From: Scenedesmus sp. PABB004
Lineage: Eukaryota
Direction of reading: 5' to 3'
Length of the DNA stretch: 64,000 nt
Assembly (NCBI GenBank): GCA_014905635.1
Contig: JABVCE010000005.1
Location: forward strand, 558,001 to 622,000
Within the stretch, counting starts at the first letter, position 1. Every line of letters begins with the position of its first letter. The translations under genes were made by a program, and so were the position numbers. The notes beneath the pieces were generated by a model, which did not search any database, was not told where the DNA came from, and saw only the letters and a list, made by a program, of their open reading frames with translations. Of the stretch, positions 16,796 through 52,421 are shown piece after piece.

Positions 16796-16926
16796 AGCGG
16801 TCGCGCAGGAGGGAGCGCAGCGTGCGGGAGAGAGACAGAGAGAGACGGAGAAACGGAGAGAGACGGACCGCGGGCGGGCGGGCGGGCGGGCGGGCAACTC
16901 GCCGTTGACGTTGCACACGCAGCCGC

Positions 16927-25844: not shown

Positions 25845-27829
25845 ATGGTGGACGCGCCCACGCTGCTGGCGGGTCCGGGGCCGTTCGTGTCTGGCACCAC
25901 GGGCCGCCTGCTGCGCGTCGGCGAGCTGCGTGCGTCCCTGGCGCGGCGGCGGGGCCGGCCCGCGCGGCCGCGCGCGCCCAGCGCCCGCGGCTCACCGCCG
26001 TCCCCGCCCCCGCAGCGTCGCAAGCGTTGCCGGCCCGCGTGCGGGACACGGCGCCGACCAAGAAGCGCAAGCTGGTGCGGCGCCGGCCGCCGCGCCGCGC
26101 TGCCTGCCCCGCGGCGGCCGCGGCGCCTGCGGCGGCGGCGGCAGCAGCACAACCTCACCGCCGCCGCCGCCGCCTGCGCGCCGCCGCCACCGCCGCAGCC
26201 GCCGGGGCGGGCTGGTTCGGAGGAGCCGAGCGAGCTGCTGAGCCCGGCCGGCCCCGCGAGCAGCGCGGGCAAGAGCAAGGGCGGCCCGCCCGGCGGCGGC
26301 GTGACGCTGCTGGACATGATCTCCGCCGGCGTGCTGCGCCCGGGGCGCGACAACGCGGCCGTGACGTACAAGGGCATCACGCACGCGGGCAGCGTGCAGG
26401 CCAACGGCACCATCCTGTTCAGGGGTGCGCCGCGAGCGCGCGGCGGCCGGCAGGCGCGCGCCGCAGCGGCGGCAGCCGGCCCACGCGCGTGCCGCCGCAG
26501 GCACCGAGTTCACCACGCCCAGCGCGTTTTCGGTGTACGTCAAACGCCTCGTCACGCCGCTGAAGCAGGGCGACGACGGCTGGCACAGCGTGTGCGTCGA
26601 CGGCGTGATGCTGCACCAGCTGCGCGCGCGCTACCACGCGCGCGGCGCGGGCGCGGCGCCGCCGCGGCAGCAGCAGCTGGCGCGGCCGCAGGGGGCGGCG
26701 GGGCAGCGGCAGCAGAGCCCGGGCACGCTGCCGCCGCTGCCGCGGCCCAGGCCGCAGGGCTCGACGGGCGCGCAGTCGCGGCCGAAGGCCAAGTCCCCGC
26801 TGCAGGCGCAGCACGGACGACTGCCGCAGCAGCGGCCGCCCGGCCAGTCGCCGCTCAAGCTGCACCTACCGCAGCGCCCCGGCGCGCCGCAGCAGCGGCC
26901 GTCGGGCCCGCAGCAGCCGCGGCCGCCGGGCGCGCCGGCGCAGCAGCAGCAGCAGCAGCAGCAGCCGAGCCCAGGCGGGGAGCAGCCAAGCAAGAAGCTC
27001 AAGCTCTCGGTCGGCAAGGCAGCCATGCCGCAGCTGAAAGAGGCGGCGGCAGCGGCCAGGGCAAAGGCCGAGCTGCGCAGCAAGGTGCGCAGGGGGCGCG
27101 TGCAGGGAGCGCGTGGCGGCCGCACCGCCGAGCGCGCGCCGGCCGCGTCGCCCATGCCGCCGGCGCCGCCCCCGCTCGCCGCAGGCCAAGGCGGCGCTGG
27201 CGGCGGCCGCGAGCCCCACGCCCTCATCGTCGGGGGCCGGCGGCGCGGCGCGCACCGCGTCGGGGGCCGGCGGGGCGGCACGCACCGCGTCCGGCCCGGG
27301 GCCCGCGCGGCAGCGGCCGCCAGGCGTGCCGCGCCCGCGGCCGCGGCCCACCACGCCCGGCGCGCCGCGCCCGGCGGGCGCCGCACCGCGGCCGCCGGGC
27401 GCGTCGCCCCGCCCGCCGGGCGCCGCGCCCCGCCCGCCAGGCTCCGCGGCGCGCCCGTCCGGGCCCATGTCGCTGCGCCTGCCGGCTCCGCGCCCGCCGG
27501 CGCCCGTGGCGGCGCCGGCAGCAGCTGCGCCCGCGGCGCCGCCCGGCGCCGCCGCCCCGACCGCGCCGCCCGGCGCCGCTGCCCCGGCCGCGCCGCCGGC
27601 GCCCGCGCCGCCGCCCACGGCCACGCCCGAGGCGCACTGGGTCGTGTGCGGGCGCTGCGAGGTGCGGCGGCGCGTGCCGGACGCGGCGTGGCCGGGTCTC
27701 TCGGCGGCGAAGCGCGCCGAGTTCATGTGCGAGGACGCGCATTGGGACCTGGAGGCGGCGGAGCCCTTCACCGCGGGCTGCCTCTCGGACGCGTGGGTCG
27801 ACGGCGGCGCCGAGGCCGGCGGCGGCTGA
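25845..27829 (+). CDS. RAMA-domain + CW-type zinc-finger protein, multi-exon
   Basis: RAMA-like VTLLDMISAGVLRPG...VTYKG...G.I.F|GTEFTTPSAFSVYVKR...DDGWHSV...LHQLRARY; C-terminal HWVVCGRCEVRRRV...EFMCEDAHW...C; Pro/Gln linker. Confidence 0.72.
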
Positions 27830-28097: not shown

Positions 28098-30028
28098 CTA
28101 CAACCGCCAGTCCTTGTGCTGCTCCAGCTCCGCGTCGTCCTCAAACCACGTGCTCGTCTTGTAGCCGCGGCGCAGGAAGGCCATCGTGCTGCCCGCCTCC
28201 TCGGTGTTGAGCCCCATCGCCGCCATGAGCTCCTCCTTGACGTCGCCCAGGTTGTAGCGCACCGCGTCCTCTGCGATGCACGCGTAGTCGCCGCTGTCCT
28301 GCTTCAGCAGCACCTGCGCGGCGCGCGGCACACACACGCGCCGAGTCGCGGCCCGGCACGCGGCGCGGCGCAGCGGCGGGCGCCCGCCCGCGCCGCCGCC
28401 GCCCGCGCCGCCGGCAGCCCGCAGCGCGGCGCGCACCTGCCAGGGGCCCGGGTACTCCCTGAAGAGCGCGCCCGAGTAGTTGATGATGAACGGCGCCGCC
28501 GCGACGCTCTTGCTGTAGTCGCGCGCGCGCAGGAAAAACGCGGCGCGCACGCGCGACAGGAACCTGTAGTGCACGTCCTTGGGCGGGTAGCCCAGCAGGC
28601 CGAGGTCGCCGCGCAGCGTGTCGAGCTCGAGGTTCCACGTCACCACCGGCTTGCCCGCCGCGACCTGCGGCGGCGCGTGCGGCGCGCCGTCGGGCGGCGC
28701 GGCGCCGCGCTGCCAGCCGCGCTGCCGGCCGCGCTGCCGGCTGCGCGGGCCTGGCCGGCGCGCCGCAAGGCTGCGAGGTGCGCAGGGGGCCGCACCGTGA
28801 GCGTGTACTCCTCCAGCGCCGGCAGCTCCACGCCCGTGACGTTGGCCACGATGAACACGTCGGCAGCAGCGCCTGCGCGCGCGTGCAGCGGCGGCGCGCG
28901 GTGGCGACGCGGGGCTCGGCTGCGGCCGCACTGCGCCGCGCACACGCCGCACACACGCCGCGCCGCGCGCGCGCCTGCGGCTGCCGGGTCGGGCGCGCCG
29001 CCGGCGAAGAGGGACTGGAGGCCTGAGAGCAGGTCGGCGGGCTTGGCCTCCTTCAGGTGCCCGAGGCTCACGCCGGGCATCAGGTCCAGCGTGGACTTGA
29101 ACCTGCGGGCCGGTCGGACGGCCGGGCGGGGGCGGGGGTCGAGCCGGCCGCGCCGCGGCGGCCAGCCGGTGCGGCGTGCTGCTGCTTGCGCCGCGGCGGC
29201 CTGCCGGCGCGCCCGGGTGCGGCGCCCTGATGGCGCGGCGCCCTGATGGCGCGGCGCGGCGCCGCGCTCACATCTTGAACGACCGCGCATACTCGCCCAG
29301 GTCGGGCGCGACGATGTGCACCTTCTTGCCCGTGGCCGCGATCTGGCGGGCGCCAGGCCGCGCGGGCGCGACGAGCGGCGGCGCGCCGGCGTCGGCGGCG
29401 GGCGCGGGCGCACGCGGCGCGCGCGGCGCACGCGCGCCAGCGCCGGCGCCGGCGCCAGCGCCGGCGGCCCAGCCGCGCAGCCTTGTGGCGCACCAGCTTG
29501 CCGGCGAGCAGGGCGTACTGGATGTTGCTGTCGATGAAGAGGTCGCTGCTGCCCTTGTACGCTGCGCGGCTCGCGGCCGGCGGCGGCGCGTGGGCGCGCG
29601 CGTGGCGGGGGGCGCGTGCGGCGCGCGCGTGGCGGGGGGCGCGGAGGGAGAGGGCGGCGGGGGCGCGGGAGGGGGAGAGGCAGGGGGCGGCGGCGCGCAC
29701 CGTCGATGTTGGTCGGCACGGCGGGGAACTCGACCTCCATCAGCGCCACGCCGTCCGCGATCGCCGCGAGCACCGCGCGGCTCGCGTCCTGCACCAGCTC
29801 CGAGTAGGACGCGGGGCGGTAGGTCATGCGCCCCGCGCCGCGCGCCGGCGGCGCGGCCGGCGCGCCGCCCTCCGCCGCGCCGGCCGCCGCCGCAGCCGCG
29901 CGCGCCGCGCGCCGCGCCGCCGCGCCGTGGCCGCCGGGCCGCGCCGGCGCGGGCGCGAACGCGCGGCCTCGGGCTGCTGGGTCTGCGGCTCGCCGCGCCC
30001 CCGCGGGCGCGCCGCAGGCGAGGCGCAT
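28098..30028 (-). CDS. LPA3: LPA3 (low PSII accumulation 3; DUF1995), plastid-targeted, multi-exon
   Basis: [13 protein letters not shown]...[85 protein letters not shown]...WR. Confidence 0.93.
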
Positions 30029-30450
30029 TGGGGTCCTGTGGTGATGGGCGGGCCGCTGCTGCCGCGGGCAGCGTCTGTGGCGACCGGCGGGCGCGGAGCG
30101 AGCGGGGCGCAGCGAGGCGTGCACGCGAGACTGGGCGCCGGATTGCGGGGCTGCCGCGATTGCGCGGGGGAGGAGCAGCTGTGGGGCCGCGGTGCAGGCG
30201 CAGCGGGCCCGCGGTCCAGCACCGCGCCCGCTCGCATGCCGTGGTCGCGTCCGAGCACGCCCGCGCGCTCACACGCGCCCCGCCAGCCTCACACCCCCCC
30301 TGCGCTCACCGGCCCCGCAGCGAGTACGCCCACCGATCGCAGCAGATGGCTCGCGCGCCCGCCTGAGGCTACCGCAGTCGTTACCCACCGCGCCACGCGG
30401 AGCACGGGCCGGTCCGGCGCCGGTCCTGCACGCGCTCGGCGTCCAGCAGC

Positions 30451-33111: not shown

Positions 33112-34759
33112 ATGCTGCGCCGGCTGCTGCTGCTGCTCGTGGCGGCGGCGGCGCTCGCCGCCAAAGCCGAAGCTGCAGCGGCGCCGGGGCCGTGCGCCGC
33201 CTGCCGCGCGGTCGGCGGGCTGTGGCTGGCCACGCCCAGCGCCGTGCGACCGCTGTGCAGGACGTCCGTGCAGCACGGGGGTGCGGCGCTGGCCGCCGCG
33301 CGCAGCAGCAGCAGCAGGCGTCACCGGGTGACGTTGCCGGGCAGCGCGCGAACGCCCGCCTCCCCCACCGCGCAGGCCGTGCGCGCGTCGTGGACGTCTA
33401 CTTCCCCGACGACGTGGCGGTCGGCGGCAACGTGACGTGAGCGCGCGCGGCGGCACGCGGGCGGCGGCACGCGCCGCGCCGCACGAGCGCGCCCGCCGGG
33501 CCGCGGGGGCCCGTCGCAAAACGAACAAGAACCCTCGCAGCAGCGAAACACTGACGTTTCCACCGCCACCGCCGCCGCTGCAGGTACGAGGCGTACGTCT
33601 ACCTGCACGGCGTGCACGCCGCCGAGTGGTTCGTCGCCGACAGCCCCGCGTGGGCGGCGCTGCGGCGCGCGTGGCCCCTGCCGCTCGCGGGCGCGGCGCA
33701 GGTCGCCGACCTCGGCGTGCTCGCGCCGGGTGCGCCCATCACGGCGGCGCCGCCGCCGGGCCGCGGGGCCGACGGCTGCGGCGGCGGCGGCAAGGCCGGC
33801 GGCGGCAACGGCGTGAAGCAGGCCCGCACCGTGCTCATCGTGCCGCAGGCGGCCGGCACGGTGGAGCGGGGCCAGGTGCGCGCGCGCCCGGGGCGGCCGG
33901 CGCGGGCGCGGCGCGCGCGGTGCGCGGCGCGCGGCGGGGCGCGGGGCGCGCGCCCACGGGCCGGCGGCGCGCGCCGCGCCGCAGATGTGGACCACGGGCT
34001 GGTGGCCGTGCGTCGCCTCGGTCGGGCTGTGCGCTGACGCGGGCGTCGACGACGTGAGGTTCATTGCCACGCTGCTGTCCAGCCTCGCCGCCGGGCGGCT
34101 GCTGCCGGGGCTGCCGCTGGGGGCCGCCAAGGCGCACCTGGTCGGCTACTCGAACGGCGGCATGCTCGCGCAGACGCTGCTGTGCGCCCGGCCGGACGTC
34201 GTGGGCGCGCTCGCGAGCGTCACCCTGCTCGCGTCGACGCTGGGCCGGGAGTTTGCGGCGGGGCGGTGCGCGCGGCCGCTGCCGCGCAGCCTGCCCCTGC
34301 TCTGGGTGCACGGCACCGCCGACGCGACGCTGCCGTACGGCCCTGGGCAGAGCGAGGGCGTCGCCGTGCTCGGCGCGGGTGAGCAGCGCGCGCCCGCGCG
34401 GGCGCGGACCCCCCGCGCGCGCGCGCGCCGCTGCCCCGCGCGCCCGGCGCGCCGCCGACGGCCGGCCCCGCGCCCGCCGCCGCCGCCGCCCCGCGGCAGA
34501 GGCGGCCGTGCGGCTCTGGGCGGCGCGCATGGGCTGCGGCCCCGCCGCCGCGGCCGCGCCCGCGGCGGTGCACAGCGACGCCGCCGTCGGCGTCGAGTGC
34601 CGGAGCTTCTGCGCCGCCGCCGCGCGGCCGCCGGTCGTGCTCTGCACGGTCGCGGGCGGCAGCCACCTGCTGCTCGCGCGCCCGCTGCCGCGCGGCTGGG
34701 CGGCGGGGCTCGCGCGCTGGGCGGGCGGCGGTTTTGCGGGCGCGCCGACGCTTTTTTGA
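33112..34759 (+). CDS. Secreted alpha/beta-hydrolase, LpqC / PHB-depolymerase-like esterase, multi-exon
   Basis: Signal peptide MLRRLLLLLVAAAALAAKAEA; YLHG; DDVRFIATLL; nucleophile GYSNGGMLA; HGTADATLP (Asp); GGSH (His). Confidence 0.8.
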
Positions 34760-35153
34760 TTTGAGGCCGGCGGGGGGGCCATGCGGCCGCGCCGGGCGAT
34801 GGTCAAGGCCGGGGGCCGCGCGGCAGGAACGCGCGCGCGCCGCCGAGGGTGCTTTCTGGCGGCGCGCGGCGTGGCCGCAGCGTGCGGCTTTGAGGTGTGG
34901 CCGCCGGGCGCACGCAACAGTTGTCTCGCAGGCTGGGTTCAGCGCCCTGCCAGCTTGGCCTCCCGACTCCCGGCGTGGGGCGCGCGGCCACGGTGCGCCC
35001 CGCGATCGCAACTGCTGCCGATTGCAACACCGGCCGCCTGCGGGGCGCACTGGCGCGCGATGGGGCAGGGGGCCTGTTTGGCGGCGCGGCCGCTGCTCGC
35101 TGCGCCGCGCCGCGGCCGCGGCCGCCGCCCGGCTGACGCGTGCGCTGCCCCCT

Positions 35154-35269
35154 TGTACACCCGCCCGCCCGCCCGCCGAACAGATCGCGGCAGGTTTGTA
35201 GTGCTGCCAGACCCACGACGGCAGCACTACAACACCTGGCGCGATCTGTTCGGCGGCGAGCGCGCCGCG
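35154..35269 (+). repeat. ~116-bp direct repeat, copy 1 (contains hairpin H1)
   Basis: TGTACACCCGCCC...GTAGTGCTGCCAGACCCACGACGGCAGCACTAC...GCGAGCGCGCCGCG is nearly identical to 35899-36014. Confidence 0.95.
35173..35256 (+). ncRNA. Pre-miRNA-like hairpin H1
   Basis: ~36-bp stem CCGCCGAACAGATCGCGGCAGGTTTGTAGTGCTGCC / GGCAGCACTACAACACCTGGCGCGATCTGTTCGGCGG with one mismatch, one bulge and an 11-nt loop. Confidence 0.55.
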
Positions 35270-35898
35270 GGTGCGCGACTCCGCTGGGCGCGGCGGCTGC
35301 CCGCCGCGCGCGGGGCGTGCCGCACGGCGCCGCCGCGGCCTGAGCGCGCTGCGCGTGCGGCGCGGGGCTCGCTCGGCCGGGGGGTGGGGGTGGCTGAACG
35401 AAGACCTCGCCCAGATGGCCAAGCCGCCAGCACGTTGCACGCCCCGGGCGCGCCAGGCCTGCGGGGGCGCGGCGCGCGGCGCGCGGCGGCGTGCGGGCTG
35501 CGCCACTGGCGCTCCGCGGCCAGCTCCCGCCCGCTCACCTTGGCCGGCGCGCCGCGCCGCCGCCCTGGCTGGCCGGCCTGGGCCCCGCGCGGGCGCGCGG
35601 GAGCCCCGCGGCGCGCGCTGCTGCAGCCGCGCGGGGCTCCAGCCGCTGCGCGGCGCGCGGCGGCCGAGCCCCGGCCCGCGCGGCGTCGGAGCGCGCTCCT
35701 GCGCTGTGCTGAACTCCACACGGCAGTTCCATGAGACGCCGGACACAGCGCGTTGATGGCCTCGTGTGCGCGCGCGCGCGCCGACGCCGCGCGCTGCCGC
35801 CAGCATCGGGCGCGCTGCTCACCTTGTGTGCTGCGCGCGCTGACCCCGCCCGCGACGCAGGGGCGCGAGGCTGATGCTGTCAGGCATGTACACCGGCA

Positions 35899-36014
35899 TG
35901 TACACCCGCCCGCCCGCCCGCCCGAACAGGTCGCGCCAGGTTTGTAGTGCTGCCAGACCCACGACGGCAGCACTACAAACCTGGCGCGATCTGTTCGGCG
36001 GCGAGCGCGCCGCG
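35899..36014 (+). repeat. ~116-bp direct repeat, copy 2 (contains hairpin H2)
   Basis: Near-identical to 35154-35269; preceded by a short GGCATGTACACC duplication. Confidence 0.95.
35922..35998 (+). ncRNA. Pre-miRNA-like hairpin H2
   Basis: 33-bp stem CCGAACAGGTCGCGCCAGGTTTGTAGTGCTGCC / GGCAGCACTACAAACCTGGCGCGATCTGTTCGG, perfect except one G:U. Confidence 0.6.
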
Positions 36015-36067
36015 TGTGCTGACCGTGCTCGCGGCCGCGACGCCGACGGGCACCCCGACGGCGACCC

Positions 36068-36158
36068 CCGGGCGGCGAGCGCGCCCGCTCGCTCCACCAG
36101 ACACAGGCCGCAGCGGCCCGTGTGTCTGGTGGAGCGAGCCGGCGCGCTCGTCGCCCGG
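36068..36158 (+). ncRNA. Pre-miRNA-like hairpin H3
   Basis: CCGGGCGGCGAGCGCGCCCGCTCGCTCCACCAGACACA / TGTGTCTGGTGGAGCGAGCCGGCGCGCTCGTCGCCCGG; ~38 bp with one G:U and one mismatch. Confidence 0.58.
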
Positions 36159-36189
36159 CAGCGCCGGCATTTTGACCTCAAAAGGCCTG

Positions 36190-36307
36190 GTGCTCGCGGC
36201 CAAGGGGGGCCGTTGCTCAGCTCGCTGCGCTTGCGCTTGGTGCTCCCGGCTTGAGCACCAAGCCAAACGGCAGCAAGTTCAGCGAGGCCCTCCTTGGCCG
36301 CGAGCAC
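36190..36307 (+). ncRNA. Pre-miRNA-like hairpin H4
   Basis: Basal stem GTGCTCGCGGCCAAGGGGGGCC / GGCCCTCCTTGGCCGCGAGCAC, imperfect middle, apical GCTTGGTGCTC / GAGCACCAAGC. Confidence 0.6.
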
Positions 36308-36308
36308 A

Positions 36309-36404
36309 CGCTCGCTGCCTTCCCGCTTGCTCTTTGCGCCTGATGAACGCGAGCCAAACCGGCGTTCATCAGCTCACAAAGATCAAGCCGGAAGGCAGCG
36401 AGTG
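36309..36404 (+). ncRNA. Pre-miRNA-like hairpin H5
   Basis: CGCTCGCTGCCTTCCCGCTTGCTCTTTGCGCCTGATGAACGC / GCGTTCATCAGCTCACAAAGATCAAGCCGGAAGGCAGCGAGTG; ~42-bp imperfect stem starting 1 nt after H4. Confidence 0.6.
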
Positions 36405-37338
36405 GACGGCTGGGAGGGCGCGCCCGAGGCGGTCGACGCCTACTTGGAGCTGTCGCCGCCGAGGGTGCGGTGCGGCCGCGAGCGCGTGCGCCGCGCGGCG
36501 TGGCGGCGCGGCGCTGCGGGCCGCGCGCCCTGCTCAGCGTCCCGACCTGCTCGGCGCCGCGCGCCGCGTGACGCGCACACCGCGCCGCCCCTCCCGCCGG
36601 CGCTCTCAGGTGCTCGCGAACACCGCGCCGCCTCGCCGCCGGCCTCTAAGGCGGCGCCGGCGCGGGGTCGGCGCGGTGAGCCAGAGCGCCGTCGCCTCAG
36701 CACGGCCTTGATGCTGACCGGCCTGACCCGCGCGGGCGCCGTTTTGAGGCTGGCGGCAGAGTCCTGGACGCGCCCGCGCCGGGCGTGGTCGAGGCCGAGG
36801 GTGTGGCGCCGCCGCGCGCGCTCTGCGCGTGCTGGCAGCGGCGCGCGGCTGCAGGCTCGCGCCGCCGCCGCTGCCGCAGCCTCAGCGCGCGATTGGGGCA
36901 TTGTGGAGGCGGGCCGGCGTCAAGAACGGCGCGTGCTGACGGTGCCGGCGCGTCGCCTGCGCGCGGCGGCAGCGACCGGCCGGTCGCCGCGCGCGGCACG
37001 TAACTCCCCCGCTCGCGTCGCTGCCGCCCGCGTCGCCCCACCACACGCGTGGGTCGCGGAGGGTTGCGGGCTGCAGCTTACAGCCCAGGAACGCCGGAAA
37101 GCGCTGGTCGACCTCCAAAGGAAGGCCAGCCCTAGCGCTCGCGATCGGCGCCCGACGCCGGCGCCGTAGCAGAGGTACGCGCGGCGCGGTGGCCTGGGCC
37201 GACAGCGGCGCCCGGGGCGCCCGCCGCGCCCGCCGCCGCTGCTGCTGCTGCTGCTGCTGCCGCCGGCCGCCCACGTGCCCCCGCGTGCTCACGGCCGCTC
37301 ACCGCCCGCCCCACGCCCGGCTGCGCGGCCAGGCTGAC

Positions 37339-37830
37339 ATGTCGGACGAGGCGGGCGCGTTCGGCGTGGCAGCCGCGGCGGCGACCGCGCTGGACGACGA
37401 CGCGCAGCCGGCGCTGCTCGCGGGCGACAACACCACGAGCGTGCTCGAATCGCCCTTCGCCTCGGCCGCGCTGGACGTGCCGGATGAGGAGCTGCAGCCC
37501 GCCGCTGCTGGCGGCGCCGCGCCCCGCCAGCAGCAGGCGCGGCGCGGGCCGCCGTGCGCGAGCGGCGGCAGCGCTGCCAGCGGGGGCAGCGCCGCCAGCG
37601 GGGGCAGCGCCGCGAGCGGCGGCAGCACGACCAGCGCAGCCGGCCCGCGCTCGGCGAGCGGCGGCCTGCGCGCGCTGCTGGACGAGCTGGGAGGCGCGGC
37701 GAGCATGCTTGAGAGCCCGTTCCTGAGCGCGTGCGTCGTGGACACGCGCAACACGCGCGGCCTCAGCCTGACCAGCTCGGAGGAGCTCGCCGCGGCGGCC
37801 GCCGCCGCCACCATCGGCAGCAAGGCGTGA
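37339..37830 (+). CDS. Small orphan protein (163 aa) with two LESPF motifs; probable 5'-UTR intron 37175-37332
   Basis: MSDEAGAFG...SVLESPFASAAL...(SGGSAA)n...SMLESPFLSACV...GSKA*; codon pattern matches the real exons; upstream AG|GTACGC donor and CAG acceptor. Confidence 0.6.
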   Translation: MSDEAGAFGVAAAAATALDDDAQPALLAGDNTTSVLESPFASAALDVPDEELQPAAAGGAAPRQQQARRGPPCASGGSAASGGSAASGGSAASGGSTTSAAGPRSASGGLRALLDELGGAASMLESPFLSACVVDTRNTRGLSLTSSEELAAAAAAATIGSKA

Positions 37831-38275: not shown

Positions 38276-40717
38276 TCACTCCCCCGCCTGCGACGCGAGC
38301 ACGTCCGCCACCGCCGCCGCCACTGCCGCCCAGCCCTGCTCCACGTGCTCCAGCTGCGTGTGCGCGCAGCCGACGGCAAAGCGCAGCGTGAAGCGGCCGC
38401 CGAGGTCGGTGCCGACGAGGAAGACGGACCCTGCGCCAGGGTTCGGGCGGCGCCAGGGTTTGGGCGGCGCGCGAGGCATGCCGTCAGTGAGTGTGGCGTC
38501 GCCAGCGGCGGCGGCGGCGGCGCGCAGCGGAACGGGGCCGCCAGCGCGTGGGCCGCCGTGCGGCGAGGCGTGCGCGCGTGCAGCTGCAGCCGCAGCTGGC
38601 GCGCACCGTCGGCGTTGATGCGTTCCAGCAGCGCCCTGTTGGCCGCGTCGCCGGCGCCCGCGAGGCGGAAGCACGTCAGCCCGAACCGCGGCGGCGCGGC
38701 GAGCTCAAGGCGCGCGTCGGCCGCGACGCGCTGCGCAAACCACTCCCCGAGCGCGATGTGGTGCCGCAGCAGCGCCTGCAGCTTGGCCTGGCGCCGCGCG
38801 GCGCGGCGGCGCGGCGCGGCGCGTGCGGGGCCGTGCGGGCGGGGGCAGGGGCGCGCTCGGCGGGCGCGCGCAGCCGCCGGCGGCCCGCCCGCGCGCCGCG
38901 CGCGGCGGGCGAGGCGGCGCCTGTGCGCACGCGTCCCCCAGCCGGCCGCGCATCCGCCGTGCCACAACCGCGCCGCCGCACCTGGCCGTACATGCGCAGG
39001 ACAAACCAGAGCTTCAGCGAGCGGAAGCGCCGCCCGAGCGGGATCTGCCAGCACTTGAAGTCGTGCACGTTGCCGACACCCACCAGGTAGGCCGGCGTCA
39101 GCGACAGCGCGGCGAGCAGGTGCGTCGTGTCGGACAGCCACATCGCCGCGCAGTCAAAGCCGGTCACCAGCCACCTGCGCGCGCGGGTGGGAGGCGGCGG
39201 GCAGCGTCGGCGCGCGGCGCGCCCGCCGGCCCCCGCCGCGCGGGCGCGGCGGCGCCGGCGGCGCGGCAGCGGCGGCGCGCGGGGCGGGCGCACTGACTTG
39301 TGCACGCTGAAGCTGTAGCTGTCGGCCTGGTCCAGGCCCTCGAACCAGTGCCGCTGCTCCGGCAGGATCGACGCGCTGCCCGCCCACGCGGCGTCGACGT
39401 GCAGCCACACGCCGTGCCTGGCGGCGGCGCGGCGCCGCGGGCGCGCGCGCGCGTGTGGGCGAGCGCCGCCGGCGGCCGCGCCGCCGGACGCCGCGCGCGC
39501 GCGCGCGCGCGCCGCACCTGGCGCACACGCGCCCCAGCTCGCCCACGGGGTCGACCGCGCAGCTCGAGGTCGTGCCGATGGTGCCGCAGGCGTAAAAGGG
39601 CAGCAGCCCGTCCGCGACGTCGCGCTCGATCGCCGCGTCGAGCGCGTCCGCCTGCACCGCGTGCGCGTGCTCGCCGCTCGTCGGCAGCTTGCGCACGTGC
39701 GCCACGCCCGCGACCATGGCGGCCTTCTGGTAGCACGAGTGCGCCTGCGCGGGCAGCACGGCGCGGCGCGTGGAACGCGGCGCGGCGCGGCGCGCGAGGT
39801 GCGTGCCGCGGCGGCGCACGCCCGCCGCCGGCGCCGCGCGGCGGGCTCGCCGGGCGGCCGGCCGCCGACCAGCACCTGGTCGCTGCCGTAGCAGACCAGC
39901 CGCAGCGCGTCCTCGGCCGGCCGGCCCTGCATCGTGCGCGCGCGCGCCGCGAGCATCGCGACCAGCACCGCCTCGCTGCTCGTGCTCTGGATGACCCCGC
40001 CGCTCGCCGGCCGCGGCGGCGCGTCGCTGTTGCCGCCGCCGCTGTCGCCGCGCGCCGTCGGCGACAGAAACTTCTCCGGGAGGCCGCAGAGCTTGGCCAG
40101 CCAGTCCATCATGACCTGCGGCCCGGCGCGGCGCGGCGTCGCGCTTGCCGGCTGGCTGCCGCCACGCGGGCCGCGGTGCGCCCGCCGCCGCCGCTGCGTT
40201 CTGCTGCCGCCGCCGCGCGGCGCACCATCTCCAGCTCCGTGCTCGCGGGGCTGCTCTGCCAGCTGAAGCCGATCATGTTTAACGCCCCGCACAGCATGTC
40301 GGCGATCTGGCTCGGCGCGCTCGTGTTGCCGCCAAACCAGGCGAAGAAGCGCGGGCTCTGCCAGTGCGTCACGCCGGGCATGATCTTGGACAGGAAGTCG
40401 GCCTTGACCGCGGCAAAGGGCTCGGCCTGCTCCGGCGCCGACGGCGGGAGCAGCGCGCGCAGGTAGCCCGGCGCGACGTCCGGCAGCACTTTGGCGCTGC
40501 GCGCGGCCGCCATGTAGTCGCAGACCATGTCCACCGTCTCGTAGCCGAGGCGGCGAAACTCCTCCACCGACACGGGGTGCGCAAAGTCGGCGAGCGCCGC
40601 GTGTGCGGCGGCGGCGGCGCCGGGCGCGTGCGACCCCATGGCGGCTGCGGTGGCGGCGCCGGGCGCGTGCGACCCCACGGCGGCTGCGGCGGCGGCGCCG
40701 GGCGCGTGCGACCCCAT
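38276..40717 (-). CDS. Aromatic L-amino-acid (tyrosine/DOPA) decarboxylase, PLP-dependent group II, multi-exon
   Basis: EEFRRLGYETVDMVCDY; IMPGVTHWQSPRFFAWF; SWQSSPASTELE; GGVIQSTSSEAVLVAMLAAR; GTIGTTSSCAVDP; WLHVDAAWAG; DSYSFSVHK|W (PLP Lys); WQIPLGRRFRSLKLWFVLRMYG. Confidence 0.95.
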
Positions 40718-51334: not shown

Positions 51335-52421
51335 TCACGCCGCCTTGGGCTTGATGTCGTGCTCGGACGCCTCCTCGGGGTTGTCCTGCCAGAACCGCCA
51401 GTTGAGGGCGTTGGCGTACGCGACGAACGCGACATAGGGAAGCATCAGCTGCCCCGCGGTGGCGTTCACCGCCCAGAACTGCTCGGGCGGGCGGCGCCGG
51501 CGGCGGGCCCGGGGCGGGGCTGGCGCGGGGGCGCGGGCGGGGCGGGCGGGCGGCCGGCGGCTGTGGCGCCCTGCGGCGCCGGCGCCGCCGCCCCACCTCG
51601 CGCGTCGTGTACAGGGCCGCGGCAAAGAGCGCTGCGGGCCGCGACAGCGCGCGCCGGCGGCGGGGGCGGTGGGCGGGGCGCCGCCGTGTCGCGCGCGCCG
51701 GCAGCGCGGGGCCCGGCGGGCCGGCGAGCGCGGCCGCACCTGCGTTGTCCACCTGGGCCACGCCTGGGCGCTTGAGCATGAAAAACAGGGGCTGCGGCGG
51801 CGCGGCGGTGGTTGGGCGGCGGCCAGCTGCTGGGACGCCGCGCGGCGTGCACGCTGGCTGCAGCCCCGGCGAGCCAGCGCCAGCGGGGACCGCAGCGCGC
51901 GCCTGCCAGGCGAGGTTGAGCGCGAGCTGCCCGCCGTACGCCTTGATCGCGCGCGAGCCCCACCCGGCGTCGCGGCCAACCAGGTACGACGCGACGCCCA
52001 TGACGGCGTACAGCACGGCCCACTGGCGGGCTCGCAGGGCGGCGGCGGGGCTCGGGGCGCGGCGGCGGGCGCGCGAGCGCGCCGAGGCAGCGCGCCGCGC
52101 GGCCGCCGGCGGCCCGCACCGTCTGGCCGAACACGGGCGCCGGCGGCGCCCAACGCGGCTTGGAGAGCTTGGGGATGTACCAGCCGAAGACCTTGTTTGT
52201 TTGGATGGGGCAGGGGGGTGGCGGCGGGCTCGCGCGGCGGGCGGACAGCGGCGCTGCGGCCGCGCGCGCTGCGCCGGCCGCGCGCGCGCCAAGCGCGCGC
52301 TCACGGCGGGCAGGCTCGCGAGCCCCACGATCTGGCCGAGGCCCAGCGGCACGGCGACGCTCAGCAGCAGGGGGCCGTTCCTCAGCGCGCCGCCGAGCAG
52401 CGCGCCGAGCGCGGGCGCCAT
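51335..52421 (-). CDS. TSPO: TspO/MBR translocator protein, multi-exon
   Basis: WYIPKLSKPRWAPPAPVFG.T|WAVLYAVMGVASYLV; QLALNLAWQ|PLFF; AGQLMLPYVAFVAYANALN. Confidence 0.93.

Follow-up and report, generated by a model that had tools for sequence, protein, structure and literature searches.

Five palindromic hairpins, possible Dicer substrates, in a non-coding gap of the Scenedesmus sp. PABB004 genome

Genes and features at the locus

The hairpin cluster lies in a 64-kb window (the whole stretch of DNA analysed, 64,000 nucleotides) of the nuclear genome of Scenedesmus sp. PABB004, inside a 2.5-kb stretch without codon periodicity that is flanked by two plus-strand genes. The published figures for this genome are 78.5% GC and 1.31% repeats; it is also reported to be small, with many gene-family contractions, and 7,092 of its proteins are annotated. 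The first-pass annotation had called the stretch the largest gene-free one in the window, and it is: codon periodicity is absent for ~2.5 kb (34.6-37.1 kb), further than anywhere else in the window, and the next longest such runs are 1.1-1.5 kb. The features are as follows (coordinates are positions in the window; 'no strand' marks features to which no strand is assigned).

33973-34764, + strand: upstream gene, 3′ part; esterase-like alpha/beta-hydrolase with a GYSNGG motif (from homology and codon phase)
35154-35274, no strand: copy 1 of a 121-nt palindromic module, containing H1 (from direct repeat and fold)
35275-35898, no strand: spacer between the H1/H2 module copies, ~84% GC, not notably structured
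35899-36019, no strand: copy 2 of the 121-nt palindromic module, containing H2 (from direct repeat and fold)
36060-36165, no strand: H3, hairpin of 47 base pairs (z −12.8 on +, −12.0 on −)
36166-36189, no strand: short spacer that is a mini-hairpin with a TTTTGA/TCAAAA core (from the fold)
36190-36307, no strand: H4, the longest and most degenerate hairpin (z −9.6 on +, −10.1 on −; DNA z −7.3)
36309-36404, no strand: H5, hairpin of 38-41 pairs that abuts H4 (z −11.1 on +, −9.4 on −)
36404-36542, no strand: weaker stem of the first-pass annotation, GC-rich multibranch pairing (z −4.3 on +, −4.0 on −)
37339-37830, + strand: probable downstream gene; ATG-initiated, low-complexity ORF of 163 codons (from translation and codon phase)

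The open frames of the upstream gene end with stop codons at 34757-34759 or 34762-34764. Its ORF is matched by 29 library proteins at E ≤ 1e-10, the best of which are 48-60% identical over ORF residues 53-192; the GYSNGG motif is visible in the alignment, the Abhydrolase_1 match is weak, and the + strand is assigned from codon-phase GC and G-rich first codon positions. Relatives of this gene occur in metagenomes, where the best 80 of 400 confirmed are only 26-42% identical and are useless for synteny. The downstream ORF has no Pfam match and no detected homologue; its third-position GC (0.87-0.95) and purine-rich first position place it on the + strand. Word-indexed protein searches with the upstream and downstream ORFs returned no match. 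The cluster occupies the region from 0.4 to 1.6 kb past the upstream stop codon and from 2.2 to 0.9 kb ahead of the downstream ATG. The first hairpin begins ~400 nt past the upstream stop codon, and both neighbouring genes are on the + strand. With a single occurrence on each strand of the 64 kb, the poly(A) marker TGTAA is of no use for placing 3′ ends.

A Pfam search with 56 ORFs (each of at least 90 aa) from the hairpin region gave no match; on this and on the absence of codon periodicity, a protein-coding origin was rejected. The tRNA search detected 0 tRNAs, so a tRNA or SINE origin of the hairpins was rejected. An assembly artefact can probably be rejected as well, given that the palindromes are short, imperfect and variously decayed. 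The GC profile gives 80-85% for the flanks of the cluster and lower values for the hairpin arms. Two sampled segments of the spacer at 35275-35898 fold with z values of −1.2 and +0.2, and the spacer has no protein-family match.

Folding of the hairpins and the H1/H2 module

The five hairpins that the first-pass annotation had located here are all present where it placed them, as are the arm sequences that it quoted, and their energies fall far below those of dinucleotide shuffles (0 of 200 shuffles were as good). For H1 to H5 in order, the MFE of the + strand RNA is −83.5, −85.1, −104.2, −96.5 and −65.6 kcal/mol; the corresponding z values are −11.9, −11.4, −12.8, −9.6 and −11.1 for the + strand RNA, −9.3, −10.0, −12.0, −10.1 and −9.4 for the − strand RNA, and −12.8, −10.3, −11.3, −7.3 and −8.1 with DNA parameters. 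The stems have 38-53 base pairs and loops of 3-11 nt, the MFEI values are 1.04-1.20, and each hairpin is retained in the global fold of 1361 nt. In a scan of the 64 kb with 110-nt windows (n = 2556), the eight most negative GC-corrected residuals all fall on H1-H5; the best background windows, when refolded, reach z values of only −4.3 and −4.5. Of the window's 25 longest short-range inverted repeats, only H2 (86%) and H3 (95%) have arms that are more than 80% complementary.

Two weaker stems that had been proposed alongside the five did not hold up. The stem at 36404-36542 (z −4.3/−4.0) does not surpass the top background windows; it is unexceptional for the window and thus probably lies outside the feature. 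The stem at 36688-36757 (z −2.2/−1.0) is not significant.

The equal folding on both strands and as DNA marks the hairpins as DNA palindromes; the G:U pairs (6 on the + strand and 10 on the −) provide no strand signature. The arms had been described as non-repetitive and A/T-containing, and they are, with a GC below the 80-85% of the flanks. The identity between arms differs from hairpin to hairpin, from about 79% to 97%, and the units range in size from 96 to 127 nt across unrelated sequences. H3 has core arms (36068-36105 and 36121-36158) that are 95% complementary. The 24-nt sequence that follows it is itself a small palindrome: the fold of 36160-36195 has a z of −3.6, with 0 of 200 shuffles as good, and it appears in the global fold too. 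H4 has 52-53 pairs, several bulges and arms that are ~79% identical as DNA; owing to G:U pairs, its RNA fold (z −9.6) is relatively stronger than its DNA fold (z −7.3). H5 is the most A/T-rich hairpin (61% GC) and is separated from H4 by 1-3 nt, close to the spacing first reported. H3, H4 and H5 are mutually unrelated in sequence, and only H1 and H2 are clearly related among the five: the similarity between H4 and H5 has a z of 2.0 (equalled by 15 of 300 shuffles), one 15-mer is common to H1/H2 and H3, and the four hairpin sequences have neither common termini nor a family resemblance.

What is new here is that H1 and H2 are two copies of one discrete palindromic module with borders that are sharp and symmetric about the loop. 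The copies are direct repeats that are 95.9% identical and 745 bp apart, with an identical loop (AGACCCACGAC at 35209-35219 in copy 1, which starts with TGTA and (CCCG)4.5). From the centre of the loop to the two borders there are 60/60 nt in copy 1 and 61/59 nt in copy 2, identity falls abruptly at both borders, and flanks of 40, 100 and 200 nt retain no similarity between the copies (z −0.4 to 1.1). A simple tandem duplication with a 745-bp period was rejected because the second copy stops exactly at the edge of the palindrome. The five differences between the copies include no compensatory pair; they give one G:U wobble, one G.G mismatch and one bulge. An exact 12-nt tandem duplication (35883-35906) straddles the left border of copy 2. 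Thus, the five hairpins stand as hairpins, but not as independent ones: H1 and H2 are copies of one 121-nt unit, so the cluster contains four distinct hairpin sequences.

Small-RNA precursor and mobile-element properties

In plants and algae, a miRNA is expected to derive from a single hairpin and to have a duplex with no more than five mismatched positions, of which no more than three are in asymmetric bulges. With 21-nt windows of the 5′ arm on the + strand, the duplex pairing rule is passed by 38/46 windows in H1, 39/47 in H2, 34/34 in H3, 44/48 in H4 and 28/37 in H5; the numbers for the − strand are similar. Thus, the structural half of the miRNA-precursor interpretation is upheld by extreme z values, by the MFEI and by the passage of most arm windows. 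No Rfam 15 family reached its gathering threshold anywhere in the window, as would fit a lineage-specific feature. The E-value mode gave 19 sub-threshold matches (15-40 bits, with thresholds of 41-100), mostly to generic miRNA-hairpin models and in several cases on both strands at one place; these (mir-m107-1, mir-4876, F6 and others) were dismissed as generic hairpin matches. When targets of the hairpin 21-mers were sought within the window, only GC-rich low-complexity matches and one match of 21/24 nt were obtained; the latter, at 52369-52392, was judged to be at chance level. No publication on RNAi genes or miRNAs of the Sphaeropleales turned up in our literature search.

Three results lean against a selected RNA gene: the strands are equal, the G:U pairs are unbiased, and H1/H2 is a copied module without compensatory changes. 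The narrow size range of the unrelated hairpins and a GC below that of their surroundings hint at constraint; this hint favours the rival interpretation in which the RNA is selected (vide infra).

Dispersed copies with target-site duplications had been proposed as the mark of MITE or foldback debris, and the evidence is divided: the H1/H2 module is discrete, but neither target-site duplications nor, in the 64 kb, dispersed copies were seen. By eye, no target-site duplication was seen in the 2-8 nt on either side of H1-H5 and of the composite 35154-36019. Beyond H1/H2, no hairpin has a copy elsewhere in the 64-kb window, in which H3-H5 are single-copy. Scans with the H1/H2 stem gave 0 matches in metagenome contigs, and scans with the H3, H5 and H1/H2 stems gave 0 matches each in viral contigs. 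Terminal inverted repeats on a short non-coding unit are present, trivially so since the whole unit is a palindrome. The H1/H2 module behaves like a MITE, though without a visible target-site duplication. With repeats at 1.31% of the genome, four different mobile families within 1.25 kb are unlikely.

Interpretation and rival explanations

The best reading, to which we assign a probability of roughly 0.45, is that the hairpins are palindromic modules at the level of the DNA, and that any transcript of them would be open to Dicer, giving hairpin siRNAs or proto-miRNAs. On this reading the locus consists of four different DNA palindromes in five copies of ~100-125 nt each, located in an untranslated gap between plus-strand genes; their symmetry is a property of the DNA, and at least one palindrome (the 121-nt H1/H2 unit) has been copied as a self-contained unit. 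A transcript across the region is predicted to fold into five hairpins of 43-53 bp and the mini-hairpin; most simply, it would come from the esterase-like gene upstream, by way of a long 3′ UTR or of read-through. The stems would be ideal substrates for a Dicer-like RNase III, and the expected products are hairpin-derived siRNAs or proto-miRNAs. The same cleavage would sever the host transcript, by analogy with DCL3 of Chlamydomonas and mRNAs with UTR hairpins. We consider it very improbable that the locus goes further, that is, that a self-copying 121-nt module without target-site duplication and three other palindromes form an array of Dicer substrates between two tandem genes that serves both as a source of lineage-specific small RNAs and as an RNase-III-dependent cut site or insulator against read-through transcripts, with A/T-containing stems that have to be actively maintained in a compact genome of such high GC.

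The closest parallel for such Dicer substrates comes from Chlamydomonas. According to passages of Valli et al. (2016; PMC4817775), introns or UTRs harbour most of its hairpins for miRNAs and siRNAs, and mRNAs with a hairpin in the 3′ UTR are cut directly by DCL3. As far as those passages describe them, the DCL3 precursors of Chlamydomonas reinhardtii and the hairpins described here share a chlorophycean host, long near-perfect hairpins in non-coding sequence beside or within a coding transcript, lineage specificity with no Rfam family, and the potential for cleavage to destabilise the host mRNA; in contrast, the present locus has five hairpins of four unrelated sequences in 1.25 kb, in a genome of 78.5% GC. 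The same passages contain 0 occurrences of 'cluster' or 'polycistronic'.

The first-pass annotation had proposed a lineage-specific polycistronic miRNA-like cluster. As a selected (hpRNA) gene cluster, it would have one plus-strand primary transcript with H1-H5; each hairpin would give one or two precise ~21-nt duplexes that are loaded into Argonaute and act on targets in trans, and H1 and H2 would be paralogues formed by duplication of a hairpin gene. We regard this as rather unlikely. Five like-sized hairpins do fall within 1.25 kb, with stems of 38-53 pairs that suffice for two Dicer phases, MFEI values of 1.04-1.20 and duplexes that pass the pairing rule in most windows; their arms are non-repetitive, A/T-containing and lower in GC than the flanks; they occupy the only large non-coding gap of the window; and H4 folds relatively better as RNA than as DNA. 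The lack of an Rfam match is expected for algal miRNAs, which are termed not phylogenetically conserved in the title of PMC5511227. Against a selected cluster, the two strands are equally stable and the G:U pairs lack strand bias; the changes between H1 and H2 are non-compensatory, and even the loop, a part usually under the weakest constraint, does not differ between them, which makes the duplication recent and uninformative on constraint. Furthermore, the duplicated unit is exactly the palindrome, which arbitrary gene duplication would not give; H4 and H5 directly adjoin each other, lacking the single-stranded flanks that normally separate clustered pre-miRNAs; and the sole near-match elsewhere in the window (21/24 nt) is at chance level. 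Green algae are not known to have Drosha-type processing. Polycistronic miRNA clusters of animals, as described for Drosophila in part of PMC12026948, likewise contain pre-miRNA-sized hairpins within ~1 kb and paralogues such as H1/H2; unlike in those clusters, most members here bear no relation to one another, the hairpins are nearly perfect, two of them have no spacer in between, and co-transcription is hypothetical.

Doubtful to a similar degree is an origin from small palindromic mobile elements (MITE or foldback) whose inert remains accumulated at an intergenic site that tolerates insertions, with no RNA role and with the hairpin potential as a by-product of terminal inverted repeats. Hairpin siRNAs and young miRNAs are known to arise from plant MITEs and foldback elements, and the locus resembles theirs in its small non-coding palindromic units (~100-125 nt), one of which is present in two sharp-bordered copies that are 96% identical with unrelated flanks and symmetric borders. 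The palindromes score alike on either strand and with DNA parameters, the units abut or nearly so, like adjacent insertions, the range of arm identities (~79% to 97%) suggests insertions of differing age, and insertions may be what made this gap the largest one in the window. Unlike MITE or foldback loci, this one has no visible target-site duplication at the five borders, no common terminal motif and, in 64 kb, no copy except the second one 745 bp away; the genome is reported to have 1.31% repeats, and the stems scanned had no metagenome or viral-contig matches. If the palindromes instead arose in place, neither mobile nor functional, in a local hotspot of template-switch or inverted-duplication mutations during replication, each formed by a polymerase that copied the opposite strand, then unrelated, single-copy sequences without target-site duplications are what is predicted, and even the 24-nt spacer is a mini-palindrome. 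The products of template switching are usually much shorter, which counts against this origin; the copying of a 121-nt module as a unit to a site 745 bp away is left unexplained, and five 38-53-bp stems in 1.25 kb with none elsewhere in 64 kb would need an extreme hotspot, so we find it quite unlikely. New hairpins and miRNAs have been proposed to originate by template switching (PMC10710096). Such hairpins are likewise perfect or near-perfect local inverted repeats, created in one step and without target-site duplications, but they are unlike five 38-53-bp stems that lie side by side with one copied to a second site, a copying that template switching does not predict. Finally, a structural cis-element, that is, an RNase-III-type fail-safe terminator or insulator against read-through from the upstream gene into the downstream one, or a cruciform DNA site for replication or recombination, would suit the position between two tandem + strand genes, and the H1/H2 modules start with TGTA/TGTACA followed by (CCCG)4-5 that could form a G-quadruplex on the − strand; cleavage of hairpin-bearing mRNAs by DCL3 in Chlamydomonas is a precedent for cutting of the transcript. 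The absence of a comparable structure between the other gene pairs of the window argues against a general gene-end device, and we judge such an element extremely improbable.

If the hairpins are inert, the locus is ordinary palindromic debris. If small RNAs arise from it, we know of no earlier candidate for a hairpin small-RNA cluster in the Sphaeropleales, and the locus would be an example of palindromic DNA modules that seed new hairpin RNA genes in an extremely GC-rich, repeat-poor genome.

Folding of the five hairpins

Each of the five hairpins reported by the first-pass annotation (H1–H5, 35173–36404) was recovered by inverted-repeat detection, as listed here.

Hairpin arms located by inverted-repeat detection
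35173–35195 / 35234–35256, with an additional inner stem: H1
35911–35954 / 35966–36009: H2
36068–36105 / 36121–36158: H3, arms 95% complementary
36190–36211 / 36286–36307 and 36205–36245 / 36253–36293: H4
36311–36336 / 36377–36402: H5

The hairpins have stems with 38–53 pairs and loops of 3–11 nt, and the minimum-energy fold of the entire 1361-nt stretch retains all five. When each was compared with 200 dinucleotide-preserving shuffles, the RNA of the + strand gave z = −11.9, −11.4, −12.8, −9.6 and −11.1 (H1 to H5, 0 of 200 shuffles matching any of them); the corresponding values are −9.3, −10.0, −12.0, −10.1 and −9.4 for RNA of the − strand and −12.8, −10.3, −11.3, −7.3 and −8.1 with DNA parameters. 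The miRNA duplex rule allows at most five mismatched positions, of these at most three in asymmetric bulges; most 21-nt arm windows of H1–H5 pass it on either strand, and the MFEI is 1.04–1.20. In structure, H1–H5 look like plant/algal pre-miRNAs. Their stems contain 6 G:U pairs on the + strand and 10 on the − strand, that is, a strand signal is absent.

Because the window is 80% GC, background folding was measured empirically. Of 2556 overlapping 110-nt windows covering the 64 kb, the eight with the lowest GC-corrected energies are all located on H1–H5; five other high-ranking windows, including the two strongest, gave z = −4.3, −4.5, −3.3, −2.7 and −1.5 when refolded. These background windows, reaching at best z = −4.3 and −4.5, show that the two "weaker stems" of the first-pass annotation are not special: that at 36404–36542 (z = −4.3/−4.0, +/−) does not exceed them, and that at 36688–36757 (z = −2.2/−1.0) is not significant. 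A 43-nt tandem repeat (1.9 copies, 84% matches, 36572–36651) lies immediately 3′ of the hairpin cluster.

At the Rfam gathering thresholds the entire window has no match, and no tRNA genes were found. A permissive E-value returned 19 sub-threshold matches (15–40 bits, thresholds 41–100), mostly to single-hairpin miRNA models; several match one hairpin on both its strands, and shape, not homology, accounts for them.

The copied module

H1 and H2, counted as separate hairpins in the first-pass annotation, are not independent: the sequences at 35154–35274 (copy 1, containing H1) and 35899–36019 (copy 2, containing H2) form a direct repeat (95.9% identity, 122 aligned columns), a relationship absent from that account. 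The repeat unit coincides exactly with the palindrome, its ends lying 60 + 60 nt from the loop centre in copy 1 and 61 + 59 nt in copy 2. In 10-nt bins, identity is 8–10/10 inside the unit and 3–8/10 just outside, the level of unrelated GC-rich sequences; the adjoining 40, 100 or 200 nt on each side show no similarity above shuffles (z −0.4 to 1.1). The copies share the same 11-nt loop and differ in five places: a (CCCG)n indel, A/G at 35184, G/C at 35190, one additional C at 35233 and G/T at 35270. These differences add a G:U wobble to copy 2 and a G.G mismatch and a bulge to copy 1, and no compensatory pair is found among them.

The repeat stops at the palindrome edges, which a segmental or tandem duplication ending at arbitrary points would not do, and its loops are identical, which an old duplication held by stem selection alone would not preserve; we rejected both. 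Given these two properties, the most economical reading is the recent copying of a discrete 121-nt palindromic module, in one piece, to a second site at a distance of 745 bp.

Both modules open with (CCCG)4.5–5 runs (35160–35177 and 35905–35924) that on the − strand read (GGGC)n, a motif with G-quadruplex capacity; a similar run occurs at about 16865–16894, which shows that the motif also exists outside the modules. The left border of copy 2 is straddled by an exact 12-nt tandem duplication (GGCATGTACACC twice, 35883–35906), owing to which the motif TGTACACC is present three times (35154, 35887 and 35899).

H3, H4 and H5 are related neither to this module nor to one another: the H4–H5 comparison gave z = 2.0, a score reached by 15 of 300 shuffles, and the sequence common to H1/H2 and H3 is one GC-only 15-mer. 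The 64-kb window contains no further copies of H3, H4 or H5 and no third H1/H2 copy; scans of the stems in metagenome contigs (H1/H2) and viral contigs (H3, H5 and H1/H2) gave no matches. The H4 5′ arm (36204–36228) agrees at 21/24 positions with coding-like sequence on the same strand 16 kb away (52369–52393), which we judged to be chance in GC-rich sequence.

Genome context

The window consists of brief blocks of strong codon periodicity (third-position GC 0.92–1.0) separated by short gaps, a layout resembling that of a eukaryote whose introns are small. The hairpins do lie in its largest gene-free stretch (about 34.6–37.1 kb, 2.5 kb without codon periodicity; the next longest are 1.1–1.5 kb), within which none of 56 ORFs of at least 90 aa in and around it gave a Pfam match.

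Genes near the hairpin cluster
34757–34764 (end of open frames), + strand: upstream esterase-like gene (alpha/beta-hydrolase), homologues 48–60% identical
37339–37830, + strand: downstream ORF, ATG start probable, from base composition by codon phase
38279–40717, − strand: pyridoxal-dependent decarboxylase gene, about six exon blocks, introns about 65–180 nt

The cluster is located 0.4–1.6 kb 3′ of the upstream stop codon and 0.9–2.2 kb 5′ of the next start, between tandem genes. The esterase-like gene matches 29 library proteins (E ≤ 1e-10), with a GYSNGG nucleophile-elbow motif visible in the alignment; its metagenome relatives are 26–42% identical (best 80 of 400). The downstream ORF is of low complexity, with two LESPF(A/L)SA motifs and an (SGGSAA)n run, and has no Pfam family and no homologue found. 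The decarboxylase ORF retrieved one protein, a hypothetical protein of Scenedesmus sp. PABB004, whose first and last segments (residues 1–165 and 485–535) match the window with 100% identity on the − strand between 40717 and 38279 (tblastn); the window is accordingly nuclear DNA of this alga or of something almost identical. Elsewhere, 26491–27030 (+) has a weak, sub-threshold RAMA domain (26.0 bits, cut-off 35.2), and 28640–30124 (−) has DUF1995 (29.9 bits, cut-off 26), a plastid-associated domain.

TGTAA, which normally serves chlorophytes as poly(A) signal, is present a single time on each strand of the 64 kb (33073, +; 37078–37082, −), too rarely to place 3′ ends, and at 78.5% GC this genome seems to make little use of it; TGTACA is found at likely intergenic spots (32857, 32913, 35154, 35887 and 35899). 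The comparative study PMC12571836 lists the PABB004 assembly with 39.8 Mb, 78.5% GC, 7,092 genes and 1.31% repeats, the last being, together with Raphidocelis, the lowest of its order.

Interpretation of the cluster

Because the hairpins are symmetric on both strands, H1/H2 was copied as one piece and compensatory changes are lacking, we say that H1–H5 are DNA-level palindromic modules first and foremost. A polycistronic miRNA cluster under selection, as the first-pass annotation proposed, would suit hairpins of uniform size and sub-genomic GC in a cluster that is unique in the window; we consider it unlikely. Inert MITE-like debris is likewise improbable: inverted termini are present, but trivially so for a palindrome, whereas the hairpin families are unrelated, the genome has 1.31% repeats (PMC12571836) and target-site duplications, named earlier as a mark of MITE/foldback elements, were not seen by eye beside any of the five units or around 35154–36019 taken as one composite. 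A template-switch hotspot would suit single-copy palindromes without such duplications (compare PMC10710096) but leaves the copied H1/H2 module unexplained, and we regard it as doubtful; a terminator, insulator or cruciform role seems very improbable.

Our preferred reading, with a probability of about 0.45, is that the palindromic modules would act as sources of hairpin siRNAs or proto-miRNAs if transcribed. Some transcript probably crosses them, since same-strand genes lie on either side in a compact genome; an RNA spanning the cluster would carry five 43–53-bp stems, that is, textbook Dicer substrates. In the literature searched, no work dealt with Sphaeropleales miRNAs or RNAi genes, and the main texts of the comparative small-RNA-pathway studies consulted are without these taxa, which their supplements may list. 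The nearest described mechanism is that of Chlamydomonas, in which, as PMC4817775 describes, introns and UTRs hold most miRNA/siRNA hairpins and DCL3 directly cuts mRNAs bearing 3′ UTR hairpins. On present evidence, the cluster is of an already-known kind: palindromic modules able to form hairpins, or hairpin-RNA loci that are still young.
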